Positions 38,781 to 49,769 of a DNA stretch of 49,769 bases are shown here, piece by piece. Position numbers and translations under genes: made by a program. Position 1 is the first letter of the stretch, and every line of letters begins with the position of its first letter. Source of the DNA: a virus (lineage: Duplodnaviria > Heunggongvirae > Uroviricota > Caudoviricetes); the IMG/VR virus record IMGVR_UViG_638341086_000008; one strand, given 5' to 3'. The notes below the pieces were generated by a model, which worked only from the letters and a program-made list of their open reading frames with translations, was not told where the DNA came from and ran no database searches.

Positions 38781-41700
38781 ATGGGTAAAGGCAGCAGTAA
38801 GGGGCATACCCCGCGCGAAGCGAAGGACAACCTGAAATCATCCCAGATGCTGAGCGTGATAGACGCCATCAGTGAAGGGCCGATTGAAGGTCCGGTGGAT
38901 GGATTAAAAAGCGTGCTGCTGAACAGTACGCCAGTGCTGGACAGTGAGGGGAATACCAACATCTCCGGCGTCACGGTGGTGTTCCGGGCCGGTGAGCAGG
39001 AGCAGACACCGCCGGAGGGATTTGAATCCTCCGGCTCCGAGACGGTGCTCGGTACGGAAGTGAAATACGACACGCCGATCACCCGGACCATCACGTCGGC
39101 AAACATTGACCGACTGCGTTTTACCTTCGGCGTGCAGGCACTGGTGGAAACCACCTCAAAGGGGGACAGGAATCCATCGGAAGTCCGCCTGCTGGTTCAG
39201 ATACAACGTAACGGTGGCTGGGTGACGGAAAAAGACATCACCATTAAGGGTAAAACCACTTCACAGTATCTGGCCTCGGTGGTGGTGGATAACCTGCCGC
39301 CGCGCCCGTTCAGTATCCGGATGCGCAGGATGACGCCGGACAGCACCACAGACCAGCTGCAGAACAAAACGCTCTGGTCGTCATACACCGAAATTATCGA
39401 TGTGAAACAGTGCTACCCGAACACGGCACTGGTCGGCGTGCAGGTGGACTCGGAGCAGTTCGGCAGCCAGCAGGTGAGCCGTAATTATCATCTGCGCGGG
39501 CGTATTCTGCAGGTGCCGTCGAATTATAACCCGCAGACGCGGCAATACAGCGGTATCTGGGACGGAACGTTTAAACCGGCATACAGCAACAACATGGCCT
39601 GGTGTCTGTGGGATATGCTGACCCATCCGCGCTACGGCATGGGGAAACGTCTTGGTGCGGCGGATGTGGATAAATGGGCGCTGTATGTCATCGGCCAGTA
39701 CTGCGACCAGTCAGTGCCGGACGGCTTTGGCGGCACGGAGCCGCGCATCACCTGTAATGCGTATCTGACCACACAGCGCAAGGCGTGGGATGTGCTCAGT
39801 GATTTCTGCTCGGCGATGCGCTGTATGCCGGTATGGAACGGGCAGACGCTGACGTTCGTGCAGGACCGGCCATCAGATAAGGTGTGGACCTATAACCGCA
39901 GTAATGTGGTGATGCCGGATGATGGCGCGCCGTTCCGCTACAGCTTCAGCGCCCTGAAGGACCGCCATAATGCCGTTGAGGTGAACTGGATTGACCCGGA
40001 CAACGGCTGGGAGACGGCGACAGAGCTTGTTGAAGATACGCAGGCCATTGCCCGTTACGGTCGTAACGTCACGAAGATGGATGCCTTTGGCTGTACCAGC
40101 CGGGGGCAGGCACACCGCGCCGGGCTGTGGCTGATTAAAACGGAACTGCTGGAAACGCAGACCGTGGACTTCAGCGTGGGTGCTGAAGGGCTTCGCCATG
40201 TACCGGGCGATGTCATTGAAATCTGCGATGATGACTATGCCGGTATCAGCATCGGCGGGCGCGTGCTGGCGGTGAACAGCCAGACCCGGACGCTGACGCT
40301 CGACCGTGAAATCACGCTGCTATCCTCCGGCACCACGCTGATAAGCCTGGTTGACGGGCAGGGGAGTCCGGTGAGCGTGGAGGTCCAGTCCGTCACTGAC
40401 GGCGTGAAGGTGAAAGTGAGCCGTGTTCCTGACGGCGTTGCCGAATACAGCGTGTGGGGACTGAAGCTGCCGACGCTGCGCCAGCGCCTGTTCCGCTGCG
40501 TGAGTATCCGTGAGAACGACGACGGCACGTATGCCATCACTGCCGTGCAGCATGTACCGGAGAAAGAGGCCATCGTGGATAACGGGGCGCACTTTGACGG
40601 CGACCAGAGCGGCACGGTGAATGGTGTCACGCCGCCAGCGGTGCAGCACCTGACTGCCGAAGTCACCGCAGACAGCGGGGAGTATCAGGTGCTGGCACGC
40701 TGGGATACGCCGAAGGTGGTGAAGGGCGTGAGCTTTATGCTTCGCCTGACCGTGGTAGCGGATGACGGCAGTGAGCGGCTGGTCAGCACGGCCCGGACGG
40801 CGGAAACCACATACCGCTTCACGCAGCTGGCGCCAGGGAACTACAGGCTGACAGTCCGGGCGGTAAATGCCCGGGGGCAGCAGGGCGATCCGGCATCGGT
40901 ATCGTTCCGGATTGCCGCACCTGCAGTGCCGTCGCGGATTGAGCTGACGCCGGGCTATTTTCAGATAACCGCCACGCCGCATCTTGCCGTTTATGACCCG
41001 ACGGTACAGTTTGAGTTCTGGTTCTCGGAAAAGCGGATTACCGATATCAGGCAGGTTGAAACAACAGCCCGCTATCTTGGTACGGCGCTGTACTGGATAG
41101 CCGCCAGTATCAATATCAAACCGGGCCATGATTATTACTTTTATATCCGCAGTGTGAACACCGTTGGCAAATCGGCATTCGTGGAGGCCGTCGGTCGGGC
41201 GAGCGATGATGCGGAAGGTTACCTGGATTTTTTCAAAGGCAAGATAACCGAATCCCATCTCGGCAAGGAGCTGCTGGAAAAAGTTGATCTGACGGAGGAT
41301 AACGCCAGCAGACTGGATGAGTTTTCGAAAGAGTGGAAGGACGCTAACGATAAATGGAATGCCATGTGGGGCGTCAAAATTGAGCAGACCAAAGACGGCA
41401 AACATTATGTCGCGGGTATTGGCCTCAGCATGGAGGACACGGAGGAAGGCAAGCTGAGCCAGTTTCTGGTTGCCGCTAACCGTATCGCGTTTATTGACCC
41501 GGCAAACGGGAATGAAACGCCGATGTTTGTGGCGCAGGGCAACCAGATATTCATGAACGACGTGTTCCTGAAGCGCCTGACAGCCCCGACCATTACCAGT
41601 GGTGGAAATCCACCGGCATTTTCCCTGACATCAGACGGAAAGCTGACCGCTAAAAATGCGGATATCAGTGGCAGTGTGAATGCGAACGCCGGGACGCTCA

Positions 41701-42194
41701 ACAATGTCACGGTAAATGAAAACTGTACGATTAAGGGCATGCTGGAGGCGACTCAGGTCAGAGGTGACTTCGTTAAAGCTGTATCCAAATCATTCCCGAA
41801 ACAGGCTGGTACGTGGGGTAATACGGAAACACCAAACGGGACGGTTACAGTCACCATCAGCGATGATCATAACTTTGACCGTCAAATCATTATTCCGCCC
41901 ATTATCTTTAACGGAATAGCGTATAGCGATCCGGGAAGTGGTAATAACCCGGGAGGTACAAGATACACGGGTTATGGTTTTGAAGTTCGCAAAAACGGTG
42001 TATTAATCGCATCCAGAGAAACTAAAGGGGCCATTCCCGGTAGTTACAGTGCAGTTATTGATATGCCGAGTGGTGGTGGTAGCGTCACTCTGGAGTTTAA
42101 GATTTTCCAGAAAGGCAATCAGGGGGCAGGCAATATCACCGACTGTACGGTGATTGTGACCAAAAAAGCCGCTTCCGGCATCAGTATTCGTTGA
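38781..42194 (+). CDS. Tail tip / host-specificity protein J
   Basis: 1137 aa, [20 protein letters not shown]...; fibronectin-III-like central repeats; a distinct C-terminal ~150 aa that I take to be the receptor-binding region. Confidence 0.9.
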
Positions 42195-42222
42195 AATTGT
42201 TATAACCCATATAAGGGCACCA

Positions 42223-42250
42223 GAAATGGTGCCTTTTTTATTGCAGAAAA
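42223..42250 (+). terminator. Rho-independent terminator after J
   Basis: AAGGGCACC-agaaa-TGGTGCCTT hairpin followed by TTTTTTATT. Confidence 0.7.
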
Positions 42251-42263
42251 GCGAGAGGTAATT

Positions 42264-42863
42264 ATGCGTAAACTTTATGCCGCCATTTTTTCCGCAGCCA
42301 TTTGTCTGGCCGTATCCGGTGCGCCTGCATGGGCATCTGAACATCAGTCCACGCTGAGCGCGGGGTATCTTCATGCCTCGACGAACGTTCCCGGCAGTGA
42401 TGATCTGAACGGGATTAACGTGAAATACCGTTATGAGTTTACGGACACACTGGGGATGGTGACGTCGTTCAGCTATGCAGGAGACAAGAATCGCCAGCTG
42501 ACCCGTTACAGCGATACCCGCTGGTATGAAGATTCCGTGCGTAACCGCTGGTTCAGCGTGATGGCGGGGCCGTCTGTACGCGTGAATGAATGGTTCAGCG
42601 CGTATGCGATGGCAGGCGTGGCTTACAGCCGTGTGTCGACTTTCTCCGGGGATTATCTCCGCGTAACTGACAACAAGGGGAAAACGCACGATGTGCTGAC
42701 CGGAAGTGATGACGGTCGCCACAGCAACACGTCTCTGGCGTGGGGAGCTGGCGTGCAGTTTAACCCGACCGAATCCGTGGCCATTGATATTGCTTATGAA
42801 GGCTCCGGCAGTGGCGACTGGCGCACTGACGGTTTCATCGTGGGTGTCGGTTATAAGTTCTGA
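42264..42863 (+). CDS. lom: Lom/Ail-family outer membrane beta-barrel protein (prophage moron)
   Basis: 199 aa with signal peptide and C-terminal ..YEGSGSGDWRTDGFIVGVGYKF, ending in Phe as beta-barrel outer membrane proteins do; own ribosome-binding site and terminator. Confidence 0.85.
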   Translation: MRKLYAAIFSAAICLAVSGAPAWASEHQSTLSAGYLHASTNVPGSDDLNGINVKYRYEFTDTLGMVTSFSYAGDKNRQLTRYSDTRWYEDSVRNRWFSVMAGPSVRVNEWFSAYAMAGVAYSRVSTFSGDYLRVTDNKGKTHDVLTGSDDGRHSNTSLAWGAGVQFNPTESVAIDIAYEGSGSGDWRTDGFIVGVGYKF

Positions 42864-42888
42864 TTAGCCAGGTAACACAGTGTTATGA

Positions 42889-42917
42889 CAGCCCGCCTGT
42901 TCAGGCGGGCTTTTTTG
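42889..42917 (+). terminator. Rho-independent terminator after lom
   Basis: GCCCGCCTG-ttca-GGCGGGC hairpin followed by TTTTTTG. Confidence 0.7.
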
Positions 42918-42927
42918 TGGGGTGAAT

Positions 42928-45888
42928 ATGGCAGTAAAGATTTCAGGTGTACTGAAAGACGGCACAGGAAAACCGGTACAGAACTGCACAATCCAGCTGA
43001 AAGCAAAACGTAACAGCACCGCGGTGGTGGTGAACACGCTGGCCTCAGAAAATCCGGATGAAGCCGGGCGTTACAGCATGGACGTTGAGTACGGTCAGTA
43101 CAGCGTTATTCTGTTGGTGGAAGGATTCCCGCCGTCACATGCCGGGACCATCACCGTGTATGAAGATTCCCGACCCGGTACGCTGAATGATTTTCTCGGT
43201 GCCATGACGGAGGATGATGCCCGTCCGGAGGCTCTGCGCCGTTTTGAACTGATGGTGGAAGAGGTGGCGCGTAACGCGTCCGCGGTGGCACAGAACACGG
43301 CAGCCGCGAAGAAGTCAGCCGGCGATGCCGGCACATCTGCCCGTGAGGCGGCAACCCATGCGACTGATGCTGCAGGCTCAGCACGCGCAGCCAGCACGTC
43401 AGCCGGACAGGCCGCGTCGTCGGCTCAGTCAGCGTCTTCCAGCGCAGAAACGGCATCAACAAAGGCCACTGAAGCGGAAAAAAGTGCTGCCGCTGCAGAG
43501 TCCTCAAAAAGCGCGGCGGCCACCAGTGCCGCTGCGGCGAAAACGTCAGAAACGAATGCGGCAGCGTCACAACAATCAGCAGCCACTTCTGCATCCACCG
43601 CGACCACGAAAGCGTCAGAAGCAGCCACTTCAGCACGGGATGCGGCGGCTTCAAAAGAGGCGGCAAAATCATCAGAAACGAACGCATCATCAAGCGCCAG
43701 TAGTGCCGCTTCCTCGGCAACGGCGGCAGGAAATTCCGCGAAGGCGGCAAAAACGTCCGAGACGAACGCCAGGTCTTCTGAGACGGCAGCGGGACAGAGC
43801 GCCTCAGCTGCGGCAGGCTCAAAAACAGCGGCTGCATCATCTGCCAGCGCCGCGTCAACAAGTGCCGGGCAGGCCTCAGCCAGTGCCACCGCTGCCGGAA
43901 AATCGGCAGAAAGTGCCGCATCGTCTGCTTTAACAGCCACAACGAAGGCTGGCGAAGCCACTGAACAGGCCAGCGCAGCAGCGAGTTCTGCTTCCGCAGC
44001 GAAGACATCCGAAACGAACGCGAAAGCGTCGGAAACCCGTGCAGAATCCTCAAAAACGGCTGCCGCATCGTCCGCCAGTTCGGCGGCGTCATCGGCATCA
44101 TCTGCATCTGCTTCAAAAGATGAGGCGACCAGACAGGCGTCAGCAGCAAAGGGCAGCGCCACGACGGCATCCACGAAGGCGACAGAGGCAGCTGGCAGTG
44201 CGGCAGCGGCAGCACAGAGCAAAAGTACGGCGGAATCCGCGGCAACGCGCGCCGAGACAGCAGCAAAACGGGCAGAGGATATTGCATCCGCCGTGGCGCT
44301 TGAGGATGCGAGCACGACGAAAAAGGGGATAGTACAGCTCAGCAGTGCGACCAACAGCACTTCCGAGTCACTGGCGGCAACGCCAAAAGCCGTTAAGGCC
44401 GCGTATGAGCTGGCTAACGGGAAATACACCGCACAGGATGCAACGACAGCACAGAAAGGGATAGTTCAGCTTAGCAACGCGACCAACAGCACATCTGAAA
44501 TGCTGGCGGCAACGCCAAAGTCGGTAAAGGCAGCCTATGACCTTGCTAACGGGAAATATACTGCTCAGGACGCTACGACAGCACAAAAAGGAATTGTCCA
44601 GCTCAGTAGTGCAACCAACAGCACATCTGAAACGCTTGCCGCGACACCGAAAGCAGTGAAAGCAGCTAATGACAATGCGAATGGTCGGGTACCTTCTGCC
44701 CGTAAGGTGAATGGTAAGGCGCTTTCAGCGGATATAACACTGACGCCGAAAGATATTGGTACGCTTAACTCAACAACAATGTCATTCAGCGGTGGTGCTG
44801 GTTGGTTCAAATTAGCAACGGTAACCATGCCACAGGCGAGTTCTGTTGTTTCAATTACGTTGATTGGTGGCGCTGGATTTAACGTGGGGTCACCTCAACA
44901 GGCAGGTATATCTGAACTTGTTTTACGTGCAGGTAATGGTAATCCGAAGGGGATTACTGGTGCTTTATGGCAGCGCACATTGACAGGGTTTACAAATTTT
45001 GCCTGGGTTAATACATCTGGTGATACTTACGATATTTACGTTGCAATCGGAAATTATGCGACTGGTGTAAATATTCAATGGGATTATACCAGTAATGCCA
45101 GCGTGACGATTCATACGTCACCAGCATATTCTGCTAATAAGCCGGAAGGGTTAACGGACGGTACAGTTTATTCACTCTATACGCCATCAGAGCAGTTTTA
45201 TCCGCCTGGCGCACCAATCCCGTGGCCATCAGATACCGTTCCGTCTGGCTATGCCCTGATGCAGGGGCAGGCTTTTGACAAATCTGCATACCCGAAACTT
45301 GCAGCGGCTTATCCGTCAGGCGTGATCCCTGATATGCGTGGCTGGACGATTAAGGGCAAACCTGCCAGTGGTCGGGCCGTATTGTCTCAGGAACAGGACG
45401 GCATTAAATCGCATACCCACAGCGCCAGCGCATCCAGTACGGATTTGGGGATGAAAACCACATCGTCGTTTGATTACGGCACTAAATCCACGAATAACAC
45501 TGGTGCGCATACCCATAGTTTAAGTGGCAGCACGAATGCAGCTGGTAATCACAGCCATAGAGATGGCCGTCGATTTAACCCCAGTGTTTTTAAAGATACT
45601 TATCAATATGGTTATACAAGCTCAGGTCAAAATACCTGGGGTGTACAAGGCTCAGTAGGTATGTCTACGGGGTGGTTAGCGAATACCAGTACAGATGGTA
45701 ATCATAGCCATTCACTGTCCGGCACAGCAGCATCTGCAGGTGCACACGCGCATACTGTCGGTATTGGTGCTCATACGCACTCCGTTGCGATTGGTTCACA
45801 TGGACACACCATCACCGTTAACGCTGCTGGTAACGCGGAAAACACCGTCAAAAACATCGCATTTAACTATATTGTGAGGCTTGCATAA
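42928..45888 (+). CDS. stf: Side tail fibre protein (Stf)
   Basis: Starts [17 protein letters not shown]; long Ala/Ser/Thr-rich low-complexity centre; three tandem ~39-aa fibre repeats; His-rich HxH C-terminal tip. Confidence 0.85.
44323..44675 (+). repeat. Three tandem ~117-bp repeats inside stf, each encoding ~39 aa (..[40 protein letters not shown])
   Basis: Direct inspection of nucleotide and translated sequence; the third copy is degenerate at its end. Confidence 0.75.
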
Positions 45889-46463
45889 TGGCATTCAGAA
45901 TGAGTGAACAACCACGGACCATAAAAATTTATAATCTGCTGGCCGGAACTAATGAATTTATTGGTGAAGGTGACGCATATATTCCGCCTCATACAGGTCT
46001 GCCAGCAAACAGTACCGATATTGCACCACCAGATATTCCTGCTGGCTTTGTGGCTGTTTTCAACAGTGATAAGGCATCGTGGCATCTCGTTGAAGACCAT
46101 CGGGGTAAAACGGTTTATGACGTAGCGTCAGGGGACGCGTTATTTATTTCTGAACTCGGTCCGTTACCGGAAAATGTTACCTGGTTATCGCCGGAAGGGG
46201 AGTTTCAGAAGTGGAACGGCACAGCCTGGGTGAAAGATGCAGAAGCAGAAAAACTGTTCCGGATCCGAGAGGCGGAAGAAACAAAAAACAGCCTGATGCA
46301 GGTAGCCAGTGAGCATATTGCGCCACTTCAGGATGCTGTAGATCTGGAAATCGCAACGGAGGAAGAAACCTCATTGCTGGAAGCCTGGAAAAAGTATCGG
46401 GTGTTGCTGAACCGTGTTGATACGTCAACTGCACAGGATATTGAATGGCCAGCACTGCCGTAG
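45888..46463 (+). CDS. tfa: Tail fibre assembly protein (Tfa)
   Basis: 191 aa; start overlaps the stf stop (TAATG); conserved C-terminal ..[26 protein letters not shown]. Confidence 0.85.
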
Positions 46464-46559
46464 GGTAAAACATATAAATTCTATAATTAGATGTATCTTT
46501 CCATTTACGGCAAGGAAGGGGGCTTGGAAGACGTAAGCATCTCACACCGAGATTATTTT

Positions 46560-47150
46560 TTATATGTCAGGTGTCTGAAGTTTTGCTTTGGCTCTTAAAA
46601 TGGTTTGCCGCGAGGTTTTGAATTCCCGGGCAATGGCACTTATACTTACACCTGACTTAATTCGTTCGAATACCACCTGTTTCTGTTCTTCATTTAACAC
46701 AGGTGGTCGACCAAAACGTTTCCCTGCGCCGCGGGCTCTTACTATCCCGGAATGAGTGCGTTCAAGTAAAAGGTCTCGTTCAAATTCAGCGACTGCTGAA
46801 ATTACGTGCATCATCATTTTTCCTGTTGGACTGGTCAGGTCAATGCCCCCCAATGCTAAGCAATGCACTCTGATACCTGTTTCGGTCAGTTGTTCCACTG
46901 TTTTCCTGATATCCATTGCATTACAACCAAGGCGATCCAGTTTTGTCACAATCAATTGATCACCACATTTCAGGCGAGCAAGCAACCGGTTAAAACCAGG
47001 ACGCTCACTGGTTGCTGCTGAGCCGCTAATGTGTTCTTCGATTATTTGCTGAGGTTTGATTTTAAAACCTGCACTTTCGATTTCCCGGCGTTGATTTTCG
47101 ATGGTCTGATCCAGCGTTGATATCCGACAGTAAGCAAAAATTCGAGACAT
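46560..47150 (-). CDS. pin: Serine-recombinase DNA invertase (Pin/Gin/Hin family)
   Basis: 196 aa, [15 protein letters not shown]... with the catalytic Ser in the N-terminal resolvase domain and a C-terminal HTH; convergent with tfa. Confidence 0.9.
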
Positions 47151-47277
47151 AGTGAGACTCTATACGAAATTGGTGTTCATATCATAATGCATCTCAGAAA
47201 ATAATTTTGATTATTTTTGTGCATATTTGTATGTACACGTTCGAAAATAAACGAATGCGTATGCAACCCCGTAATTT

Positions 47278-47291
47278 TGGTGAGACCCAAA
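47278..47291. other. Perfect 14-bp palindrome CAAAATCGATTTTG upstream of pin (candidate recombinase or regulator site)
   Basis: Seen directly; only a loose resemblance to gix/hix-type half sites; followed by a second inverted repeat AACTCGG..CGAGTT at about 47303..47330. Confidence 0.25.
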
Positions 47292-47466
47292 ATCGATTTT
47301 GTGAAAAATGGCTTTAACTCGGTTTGTTTTTCGAGTTCCGGGCGGACTCAAGGAAGAAGAATAGTGTTGCGTGTTATTTTAACCAGATTTCAAGTTGTTT
47401 GGTCGTGGAAAAGTGGAGCAAAATGTTGTTAAAGTGGAAAAATGATAAAAAAGTAAGTTTATTATA

Positions 47467-47700
47467 TTACATTTTACCATTTAAATTTTGGTTGTCTTTA
47501 AGAACTGATATCGCTGTTTGTAATAATTCTTTGTTATCCAGCCATGATTTTTTCTTTATGTTTCCTTCAATGTAATCAAGCAATGTTCTGGTATTGATAG
47601 GTCTTCCCTGTTTTGCTACTTCCACTACAGCATCCCCTAGGATAATTCTTACTTCAGGAAGCTGCGCAGGGAACCACTTTAGGGTGTCTTTTGATTTCAT
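47467..47700 (-). CDS. ydfK: YdfK/YnaE-family small cold-shock-associated prophage protein
   Basis: Start set at the internal Met (MKSKDTLKWFPAQLPEVR..., 77 aa) with AAGGAA ribosome-binding site; the ORF track gives an 88-aa version from 47733. Confidence 0.65.
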   Translation of the reverse strand: MKSKDTLKWFPAQLPEVRIILGDAVVEVAKQGRPINTRTLLDYIEGNIKKKSWLDNKELLQTAISVLKDNQNLNGKM

Positions 47701-48485
47701 GAAGATATTCCTTAAAATATTATTGATTTTCATTGCGATATTGTATGTCTGATTCAGGATATGTTGACTTATACATCGGTTTTGTCTGGGTTATTGGATA
47801 TGCCAATCCCTAATTTTATTAGGGCATGGCTAAAAATGCTGAATATGATAAGGAGAGAAGTGATTATCAGTATGCTGTTCATATAGCCTCGAATTAGTAA
47901 TGTGTTATATATGATATAGTTGACAATTTTTATCTTGGGTGTTCTTAAAGTTCGTAGATAAACATTGTCGTTTCAGGTATACAGGAATGCTAACAGGTGG
48001 CAGCAAAAATCAGGCGGTTTATGGCGCAAGCTGAAGCGGCAACTGCAAACTATCTTATGCAGAGACTCTACACGGATTGGGTTTAAAAGTATACATAGAT
48101 AACAGTTTTTATCTGAAAAAGAAAAATATCAAGGTGATATAGCCTATATGCCTTTGATGCGGAGGAATGAATGTGATGGGAGTGATGTATCTGAATAGTT
48201 GAAAAACCGCAGACACGCCTTATGCAAGAACGTGCTGCGGTTGGCTGGTAAATTTTTCGATAGTGTGAGTATTGAATGATTTCCAGCCGTTCTTGATTTT
48301 ACGCATAAATCCATGAAAAAACTACTTATCTGTTGGGGAGTTTTTTTGGGGCATATATGGGACAGAAATAGGCCCCAGATAGACACTGAGATCGAACTTA
48401 GGATGCTTTTTAAAAAATGCAACTATCTGAAAAAACCTAGAAAACGCCAAGGAAACCACAGGATGGGAAAAAACACCTGTGAATT

Positions 48486-49769
48486 ATGGATTTCCAGTTA
48501 TATTCGCTCGGCGCAGCGTTGGTGTTTCATGAAATATTTTTTCCTGAATCATCAACGGCAATGGCGTTAATTTTGGCAATGGGAACCTACGGTGCAGGTT
48601 ATGTGGCGCGTATTGTCGGAGCATTTATTTTCGGCAAAATGGGCGACAGAATAGGGCGTAAAAAAGTGCTCTTTATTACCATCACCATGATGGGGATCTG
48701 TACCACCTTAATTGGTGTGTTACCGACCTATGCACAGATTGGTGTTTTTGCCCCCATCTTGCTGGTGACGCTGCGTATTATTCAGGGGTTGGGTGCAGGT
48801 GCGGAAATTTCCGGTGCCGGTACGATGCTGGCGGAATATGCACCAAAAGGTAAGCGCGGAATTATCTCCTCATTTGTAGCTATGGGAACTAACTGCGGAA
48901 CCTTGAGCGCAACGGCAATCTGGGCCTTTATGTTCTTCATTCTCAGTAAAGAGGAACTGCTGGCGTGGGGATGGCGTATACCGTTCCTGGCGAGCGTTGT
49001 CGTGATGGTCTTTGCTATCTGGTTACGTATGAATCTGAAAGAAAGCCCGGTCTTTGAGAAGGTTAATGACAGCAACCAACCCACAGCAAAACCTGCACCT
49101 GCTGGTAGCATGTTCCAGAGCAAATCCTTCTGGCTGGCAACAGGGCTGCGTTTTGGTCAGGCGGGTAACTCCGGGTTAATTCAGACTTTCCTTGCAGGCT
49201 ATTTAGTGCAGACGTTATTGTTTAACAAAGCAATTCCAACAGATGCATTGATGATTAGTTCGATTCTCGGCTTTATGACCATTCCGTTCCTTGGTTGGTT
49301 ATCCGATAAAATTGGTCGCCGGATCCCGTATATTATTATGAATACCTCCGCGATTGTGCTGGCATGGCCAATGCTTTCTATCATTGTAGATAAAAGCTAT
49401 GCCCCGAGCACCATTATGGTTGCACTGATTGTGATTCATAACTGTGCGGTGCTGGGATTATTTGCTCTGGAAAACATTACCATGGCAGAAATGTTCGGCT
49501 GTAAAAACCGCTTTACCCGGATGGCTATTTCTAAAGAAATTGGTGGTCTTATCGCTTCCGGTTTTGGTCCTATCCTGGCGGGTATTTTCTGCACCATGAC
49601 GGAATCCTGGTATCCGATCGCCATTATGATCATGGCATATTCAGTAATTGGTTTAATCTCTGCGCTGAAAATGCCAGAGGTGAAAGACCGTGATTTAAGT
49701 GCGCTGGAAGACGCTGCGGAAGATCAACCGCGTGTTGTAAGAGCTGCGCAACCTTCCAGAAGTCTGTAA
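48486..49769 (+). CDS. ydfJ: MFS-superfamily metabolite:H+ symporter, apparently 5'-truncated at the prophage junction
   Basis: 427-aa multi-pass membrane protein with MFS signature (..GKMGDRIGRKKVL..); an in-frame stop sits immediately upstream of the first ATG and the ORF lacks the usual first transmembrane segment; stop codon is the last base of the window. Confidence 0.75.
   Translation: MDFQLYSLGAALVFHEIFFPESSTAMALILAMGTYGAGYVARIVGAFIFGKMGDRIGRKKVLFITITMMGICTTLIGVLPTYAQIGVFAPILLVTLRIIQGLGAGAEISGAGTMLAEYAPKGKRGIISSFVAMGTNCGTLSATAIWAFMFFILSKEELLAWGWRIPFLASVVVMVFAIWLRMNLKESPVFEKVNDSNQPTAKPAPAGSMFQSKSFWLATGLRFGQAGNSGLIQTFLAGYLVQTLLFNKAIPTDALMISSILGFMTIPFLGWLSDKIGRRIPYIIMNTSAIVLAWPMLSIIVDKSYAPSTIMVALIVIHNCAVLGLFALENITMAEMFGCKNRFTRMAISKEIGGLIASGFGPILAGIFCTMTESWYPIAIMIMAYSVIGLISALKMPEVKDRDLSALEDAAEDQPRVVRAAQPSRSL

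Follow-up and report, generated by a model that had tools for sequence, protein, structure and literature searches.

Evidence that pinQ of a Qin-type lambdoid prophage is probably a remnant of a Tn3-family transposon resolution module

The small serine recombinase gene pinQ, carried in the prophage right arm of the viral sequence in IMG/VR record IMGVR_UViG_638341086_000008 (49769 nucleotides; the whole of this stretch is referred to here as the window), is very likely what a Tn3-family transposon (Tn2501/Tn2502/Tn2503 type) left stranded of its resolution module, rather than a tail-fibre invertase of the Pin/Gin type. The parts of the transposon that survive would be one terminal inverted repeat (46518–46553), the tnpR-like pinQ gene itself and the promoter-proximal part of the res site (47161–47263), with the transposase gene and the other transposon end lost.

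The gene in the window is the already known pinQ of a Qin-type lambdoid prophage, which has long been annotated, its orphan status included, and for which a role in phage defence was reported in 2025 (PMC12529663). The usual assumption that this locus holds a Pin-type invertase minus its cassette appears to be wrong; what lambdoid phage genomes contain at this locus seems instead to be a piece of a Tn3-family transposon. In the searchable literature, no statement was found of the transposon origin or of the replacement of a catalytic arginine by cysteine described below, and both are modest, testable additions to what is known of this gene.

Relationship of PinQ to TnpR resolvases

PinQ was found to share 71–82% amino acid (aa) sequence identity with TnpR resolvases of the Tn3 family, including 71% with TnpR of Tn2503 and 82% with the TnpR encoded by pECOED, whereas identity to the Din invertases PinE, Gin and Cin was 38.0%, 34.8% and 35.5%, respectively. 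Din invertases share roughly 60% identity or more with one another, a general figure for the family rather than one computed for the PinE, Gin and Cin pairs. The label 'Pin-type', used in a first-pass annotation made from the letters of the window and its open reading frames (ORFs), had the gene name as its sole basis and does not describe a protein that is 38% identical to PinE.

In the phage collection, the copies from lambdoid phages were ≥98% identical and all other matches were ≤60% identical, with a gap between the two groups. Proteins in this gap, with 60–90% identity to PinQ, were encoded in hundreds of plasmid records. Where the context of these plasmid relatives was intact, the gene was located head-to-head with a Tn3-family transposase gene, as in pECOED, Klebsiella pneumoniae plasmid pTH164-2 and pPCP of Yersinia pestis Java 9. 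The tnpA products encoded beside the relatives include DUF4158 or carry the annotation 'Tn3 family transposase', and the tnpA gene of pECOED is truncated by IS600, with DUF4158 at the N-terminus of its product. The Y. pestis element has been described as the class II transposon Tn2503, which has divergent tnpR and tnpA genes, is related to Tn2502 and Tn2501, and includes a res site made up of three regions of dyad symmetry (PMC3316555).

Annotation pipelines were also seen to call the transposon resolvases of Klebsiella resistance plasmids 'pinR', for example in 'Tn5403-pinR' (PMC13253593, PMC13340248). These Prokka-style labels beside Tn5403 were considered as a guide to the identity of the transposon and rejected, as they reflect annotation transfer and are not evidence; the documented relative is Tn2503. 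The invertase name is misleading and spreads by similarity transfer, which calls for caution in annotation.

Transposon remnants at the flanks of pinQ

The relationship extends beyond the coding sequence. The window and the tnpR region of pECOED share 81.6% DNA identity over 727 bp (47246 to 46522), a stretch that begins in the res region, takes in subsites II and III as well as the gene, and continues for 38 bp past the stop codon, to the tip of what corresponds to the terminal inverted repeat of the transposon. In pECOED and pRM10386-2, this terminal sequence ends at GGGG, which is the point where the two plasmids diverge, and an intact 38-bp repeat bounds Tn2503 at both ends. The remnant of this repeat downstream of pinQ matches at 24 of 31 positions, with one gap. 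The first-pass annotation had noted that pinQ converges on the tail fibre assembly gene, tfaQ, with about 96 bp between them, and this spacing was confirmed (46464–46559, from the end of tfa to the pin stop codon). The tight convergent packing of the two genes is accounted for by the transposon tip, which the 96-bp gap holds.

The pinQ locus is a transposon fragment, not a transposon. In phages that lack pin, the lambda-like homology stops within or just after tfa (~46450–46469) and not at the tip of the repeat, hence an empty site was not found and the original insertion site could not be reconstructed. In pTH164-2 (coordinates ~774–1860), IS5075 was found inserted in the tnpA-side repeat of the PinQ-related transposon, where only the inner part of the repeat (ATTATCCCACGCTAAG) is left beside tnpA.

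Upstream of pinQ, the remnants of a res site could be recognised. All relatives with 59–82% identity to PinQ share an array that starts with subsite I, a 26-bp palindrome of the form TGACCGAAACCG-NN-CGGTTTCGTACA; after a spacer of 14 bp come subsite II (32 bp), a TATAAT box and subsite III. The block 47161–47263 aligns position by position with this three-part res, with subsite III nearest the gene (Table 1). Half-sites were scored using a TnpR half-site matrix built from the relatives, for which the training median was 15.1 bits. The promoter-proximal half of subsite III, TATACGAAAT (47161–47170), scored 13.4 bits and is the only one of the six half-sites to keep a family-like score, the others scoring 5.3, 4.8, 3.2 and <1 bits. 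In subsite II, the window has TGCACAAAA...TTTCTGAGA where the relatives have TGTCCGAAA...TTTCGGACA, and the two halves scored 3.2 and 0.9 bits. The spacing of 14 bp between subsite II and the positional homologue of subsite I, the crossover site in the relatives, is the same as in all of them; the half-sites of this homologue scored 4.8–5.3 bits, and blastn homology fades at 47246, within it.

As five of the six half-sites, including both halves of the crossover subsite, have departed from the family motif, the pinQ module probably cannot recombine in cis, and the block 47161–47263 is a remnant and probably not a working res site. Only one copy of a res-type site is present in the window. It is very unlikely that PinQ still uses the upstream region as a working res in cis for the resolution of multimers, whether of phage, prophage or plasmid. 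Although intact relatives share the layout, with res between tnpA and tnpR, and the gene is conserved in viable phages, the state of the half-sites and the loss of the catalytic arginine (see below) both count against this explanation. We also know of no need for a resolvase in lambdoid phages, which package their DNA from concatemers.

Two further observations concern sites of this type. The best match to the TnpR half-site matrix in the window (TGACCGAAAC, 13.9 bits) is located inside pinQ (46879–46888, minus strand). In Erwinia oleae contig83 (coordinates ~1299–2650), two divergent genes for PinQ-like TnpR proteins share one central subsite I and each has its own subsites II and III, an arrangement that recombination between two inverted res sites would be expected to leave.

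The first-pass annotation also drew attention to a perfect 14-bp palindrome, CAAAATCGATTTTG, upstream of pin. The palindrome exists, but it had been placed at 47278–47291, ten bases away from its actual position (Table 1). Its proposed loose resemblance to crossover half-sites was not upheld, as its score on a matrix for Din-type sites (described below) was below zero in every register. The window includes four perfect 14-bp palindromes where 2.9 are expected from shuffled sequences, and the chance of at least one such palindrome in the local 2-kb AT-rich stretch is ~0.15. The palindrome is probably a chance feature. An assignment as res subsite I was also considered because, with a 3-nt gap, the palindrome can be matched to the subsite I found in one distant relative. 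This was rejected: the multiple alignment places subsite I at 47238–47263, the palindrome halves score <1 bit on the TnpR half-site matrix, and the palindrome itself is located further upstream, in a 31-nt stretch that has no counterpart in the transposons.

Search for a tail-fibre inversion switch

The switches in e14 and Mu have an invertase gene beside tail-fibre genes, and the first-pass annotation had viewed pinQ as part of an apparently degenerate switch of this Pin/Gin type, which would have lost a second stf'/tfa' half together with the crossover sites. Using tblastn over the 49.8-kb window, a single tfa, a single stf C-terminus and a single serine recombinase were detected, in agreement with the earlier statement that only one tfa is present. 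No second tail-fibre C-terminus or second tfa in the opposite orientation was found in the window, unlike in e14 and Mu.

The window was also searched with a Din-type weight matrix (12-2-12), an approach recommended in the first-pass annotation. The matrix was trained on pixL and pixR (e14), gixL and gixR (Mu), cixL (P1) and hixL. Real gix, pix and cix sites scored 29.6–33.3 bits, whereas the best 26-mer in the window scored 8.7 bits and the mean maximum for shuffled sequences was 10.6 bits. No gix-, pix-, cix- or hix-like 26-bp site was found by this search in stf, in tfa, around pin or elsewhere in the window, nor was a pair of inverted 26-bp crossover sites (TTnTCnnAAACC-NN-GGTTTnnGAnAA) bounding an invertible segment. 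The reported lack of an invertible stf/tfa cassette was thus confirmed by both approaches. A generic inverted-repeat search of 42000–48600 returned only weak matches (71–94%), none of which bracketed stf/tfa.

The Fis-dependent recombinational enhancer, which lies in the 5' part of Din invertase genes, was considered separately. The annotated Cin enhancer aligned to nt 18–90 of pinE (score 42) and nt 21–89 of gin (score 40). Against pinQ the score was 11, which is in the range of shuffled sequences, in a comparison of sequence similarity alone.

Among E. coli genomes with the pin-ydfK junction, 2756 of 2805 (98%) were colinear from pin to ydfK, with the res remnant and the palindrome in between, and the listed exceptions were two-piece matches, an IS1 insertion and a truncation. 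There was therefore no population-level sign of inversion at the pin-ydfK region among complete E. coli genomes, which agrees with a published study that found no inversions in Qin and Rac (PMC12529663).

There is at present no local stf/tfa inversion switch and, as the gene has a transposon origin, probably no switch for flipping tail fibres ever existed at the pinQ locus. A degenerated Pin/Gin-type switch is extremely unlikely. The gene is named pin and adjoins stf and tfa, but its product is 71–82% identical to transposon resolvases against 35–38% to invertases, the window lacks a crossover-like site and pinQ lacks an enhancer homologue, and on its two sides the gene has remnants of res and of a transposon inverted repeat. 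In addition, the pin-ydfK module is found beside unrelated tail-fibre modules in different phages, as seen when Tritos is compared with mEp460.

Replacement of the catalytic arginine

The full catalytic set, in Tn3 numbering, consists of Y6, R8, S10, D36, R68 and R71. In PinQ, Y7, R9, S11 and R73 are kept, and the D36 position is occupied by Glu, as in the transposon relatives. However, the position that corresponds to R71 is Cys76 (codon TGT), whereas alignments revealed Arg at this position in every transposon-type relative (codon CGT) and also in PinE, Gin and Cin. Cys76 was present in 95 of 95 loci from E. coli, Shigella and phages, K-12 PinQ and PinR among them, and Arg in 10 of 10 transposon-type loci. 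In Tn3 resolvase, the R71A and R71K substitutions abolish recombination and reduce cleavage ~1000-fold (PMC2794168), and Cys76 is of direct relevance to the published view of PinQ as the enzyme that inverts the P segment of e14. As there is no partner site, the crossover subsite is ruined and the catalytic arginine has been substituted, the module would be expected neither to invert nor to resolve DNA locally.

Conservation and carriage by phages

All 79 viral loci carry the 196-aa ORF in intact form. For a pair of alleles from the phage lineage, with differences at 60 of 591 nucleotides, the dN/dS ratio was 0.34–0.40, and from these sequences pinQ appears to be under purifying selection. The pin gene is present in about half of complete E. 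coli genomes and is carried by the viable temperate phages Tritos, mEp460, 2H10 and Turner. In Tritos, mEp460 and Turner, the pin-ydfK module is located between the tail-fibre genes and attP/int, and ydfK always accompanies pin in lambdoid phages and prophages.

It is improbable that pinQ is a functionless relic decaying together with its sites. Decay is evident in res and the inverted repeat, tnpA has been lost and the active site has a substitution, and frameshifts are seen in copies of pin from Shigella and from one E. coli genome. However, the intact ORF in all viral loci, the dN/dS values, the wide carriage in E. coli and the published phenotypes of pinQ deletion (PMC12529663) argue against a gene without function.

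The e14 P segment and the role of PinQ

Several observations weigh against the interpretation of pinQ as a transposon fragment whose product no longer catalyses resolution. When solved structures were ranked as matches to PinQ, Gin (E = 1e-29) was placed slightly above gamma-delta resolvase (1e-22). Neither a second inverted repeat nor a tnpA fragment was found in the window (repeat search and tblastn). The remnant of the one repeat, taken alone, is not significant genome-wide, with a score of 14 that equals the shuffle maxima, and it is credible because it is contiguous with the long pECOED alignment. R71 mutants of Tn3 resolvase were described as 'not inert' (PMC2794168), and by analogy Cys76 may leave PinQ some residual activity.

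The remaining observations come from Kirigo et al. (NAR 2025, PMC12529663), who reported that the P segment of e14 (1797 bp) is inverted in trans by PinQ, and also by PinR, which is nearly identical to it, and that this inversion leads to a chimeric StfE2 that blocks adsorption of phage T2. Overproduction of PinQ resulted in 88% inversion of the P segment compared with 26–30% in controls, and deletion of pinQ lowered both inversion and T2 resistance/survival, whereas deletion of stfP, stfE or e14 had no effect (PMC12529663). These data speak for some recombinase activity of PinQ in trans. On them, PinQ could be a fully competent invertase that acts only in trans and directly cuts and rejoins the e14 pix sites, which would be compatible with a transposon origin.

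We consider a fully competent trans-acting invertase rather unlikely. In PMC12529663, PinQ is called an invertase from its name and its 38% identity to PinE, the Tn3/TnpR relationship is not mentioned, and the study describes neither in vitro assays nor purified PinQ nor a catalytic mutant. PinQ has Cys at the R71 position, where substitution is so damaging in Tn3 resolvase, and the pix half-sites score ~2.5 bits on the PinQ-family matrix. A plain invertase would be expected to give a ratio near 50:50, as was seen for PinE (49% inversion; PMC12529663), and in our view the value of 88% suggests selection or some other effect. The 'locked' pinE deletion of the same study does not discriminate, as the enhancer is located within pinE (nt 18–90). 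PinQ might catalyse e14 inversion directly, and the published effect fits action in trans, via a regulator or a weak recombinase alike. The suggestion in the first-pass annotation that pin has another role is supported in spirit by this effect.

We tentatively propose that PinQ and PinR may be co-opted Tn2501-type TnpR proteins, kept by purifying selection after the loss of the catalytic arginine and res, which serve as DNA-binding regulators, or as partners or modulators that bias PinE-type inversion, and not in the catalysis of resolution. PinQ would most likely work via DNA binding by a helix-turn-helix domain that appears unchanged; because the gene is conserved, we infer that DNA binding has been retained. 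PinQ may repress its own promoter at the surviving half-site of subsite III, or may modulate other sites in trans. Any recombinase activity that it has would at best be strongly attenuated and exerted in trans, in the way reported for the P segment of e14. If this proposal holds, the published phage-defence model of PinQ as an invertase would need another molecular mechanism.

Genes and other features of the locus

Over its final 11 kb, the window carries the right arm of a lambdoid prophage that is inserted in ydfJ. E. coli chromosomes matched a 2.7-kb query from this region at 99.9%, and the genes there are named tfaQ, pinQ, ydfK and ynfT. The protein encoded in the window is 98% identical to K-12 PinQ and 99% identical to PinR. 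The features of the region are listed in Table 1.

Table 1. Genes, recombination-site remnants and other features of the pinQ region (coordinates of the window; a point in the strand column indicates no strand)
Feature	Coordinates	Strand	Remarks
J	38781–42194	+	Qin-type prophage right arm
lom	42264–42863	+	
stfQ, side tail fibre gene	42922–45888	+	Pfam phage_tail_N, Phage_fiber_2 and Collar domains; one copy
tfaQ, tail fibre assembly gene	45888–46463	+	Pfam Caudo_TAP, E = 3e-44; tfaQ in E. coli IAI1
Remnant of 38-bp terminal inverted repeat, Tn3-family (Tn2503-type)	46518–46553	.	GGGG tip toward tfaQ
pinQ, 196-aa small serine recombinase	46560–47150	-	Pfam Resolvase and HTH_7; annotated pinQ
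pinQ codon 76, TGT (Cys)	46923–46925	-	position of catalytic Arg (Tn3/gamma-delta R71)
res subsite III remnant	47161–47179	-	one family-like half-site, TATACGAAAT
Probable pinQ -10 hexamer	47181–47186	-	TATGAT here, TATAAT in all transposon relatives; role inferred from position
Decayed res subsite II, 32 bp	47192–47223	-	gap-free positional alignment
Positional homologue of res subsite I (crossover site of relatives)	47238–47263	-	heavily decayed
14-bp perfect palindrome, CAAAATCGATTTTG	47288–47301	.	outside res-homologous block
ydfK, cold-shock protein gene	47467–47700	-	annotation of IAI1 and K-12
ynfT	beyond ydfK	-	
ydfJ', host transporter gene cut off at prophage end	48486–49769	+	Pfam MFS_1; incomplete ydfJ in IAI1

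A number of other features were observed in the region. In the sequence 5' of the pinQ start (47151–47160), the window has a small deletion: the plasmid tnpR and a second E. coli allele have GAAGATCTCACTATG, compared with GAGTCTCACTATG in the window, and this might change the initiation of pinQ translation. An inverted repeat, AACTCG-N10-CGAGTT, is located at 47316–47337, between ydfK and the 14-bp palindrome, and could form a weak hairpin where the transcript of ydfK ends, although the terminator scan did not call it. The promoter and terminator scan was uninformative, giving only weak 9-of-12 promoter-like matches, and an Rfam scan of 46300–48600 found nothing in the pin-ydfK spacer.

The mechanically predicted ydfK ORF reaches 47733 (47467–47733, minus strand) and encodes 88 aa from an upstream ATG, compared with 77 aa for the RefSeq form (47467–47700); its product had no match in Pfam or NCBIfam. 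In stfQ, Pfam identified the Phage_fiber_2 repeat three times, and the DNA includes three near-identical units of ~120 bp around 44300–44660. The 3' half of tfaQ (46231–46429, plus strand) includes a full-length match to Rfam IS009 (RF02111), with a score of 226.7 bits against a gathering score of 117, so that a candidate small RNA is embedded in the coding sequence of tfa.

Comparison with known systems

Like PinQ, the Din invertases (Pin of e14, Gin of Mu, Cin of P1 and Hin of Salmonella) have an N-terminal catalytic domain followed by a C-terminal helix-turn-helix and are encoded adjacent to tail-fibre genes, and PinQ has been reported to affect the e14 P segment. However, PinQ shares 35–38% identity with them, and its locus is without the 26-bp crossover sites, the enhancer in the 5' part of the coding sequence and the alternative stf'/tfa' segments. 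Fin of prophage Fels-2 is a true member of the Din family. Its action on the Salmonella H segment (cited in PMC12529663) resembles the model put forward for PinQ, in that a prophage recombinase acts elsewhere in the genome. PinQ, unlike Fin, does not belong to the Din family, and its direct action on pix is putative.

PinQ (b1545, in Qin) and PinR (b1374, in Rac) of K-12 are encoded by the same gene as that in the window, with Cys76 included. Their loci have matching neighbours, with stf and tfa followed on the opposite strand by pin, ydfK/ynaE and ynfT/ynaM, and the ydfJ insertion site is common to the window prophage and K-12. The stfQ gene is truncated in K-12, whereas the Qin-type prophage in the window keeps full-length J, lom and stfQ.

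The TnpR resolvases of the Tn2501, Tn2502 and Tn2503 group, including those of pECOED and pTH164-2, share 71–82% protein identity and 81.6% DNA identity (727 bp) with the pinQ module. The order of elements is also shared: res subsites I and II are followed by a -10 box, subsite III and the gene, and the terminal inverted repeat comes last. The pinQ module differs from these elements in being without tnpA and the second repeat, in the decay of five of six half-sites and in the change of Arg to Cys, and it rides in the b region of lambdoid phages, whereas the Tn2501-type TnpR genes are carried on transposons.

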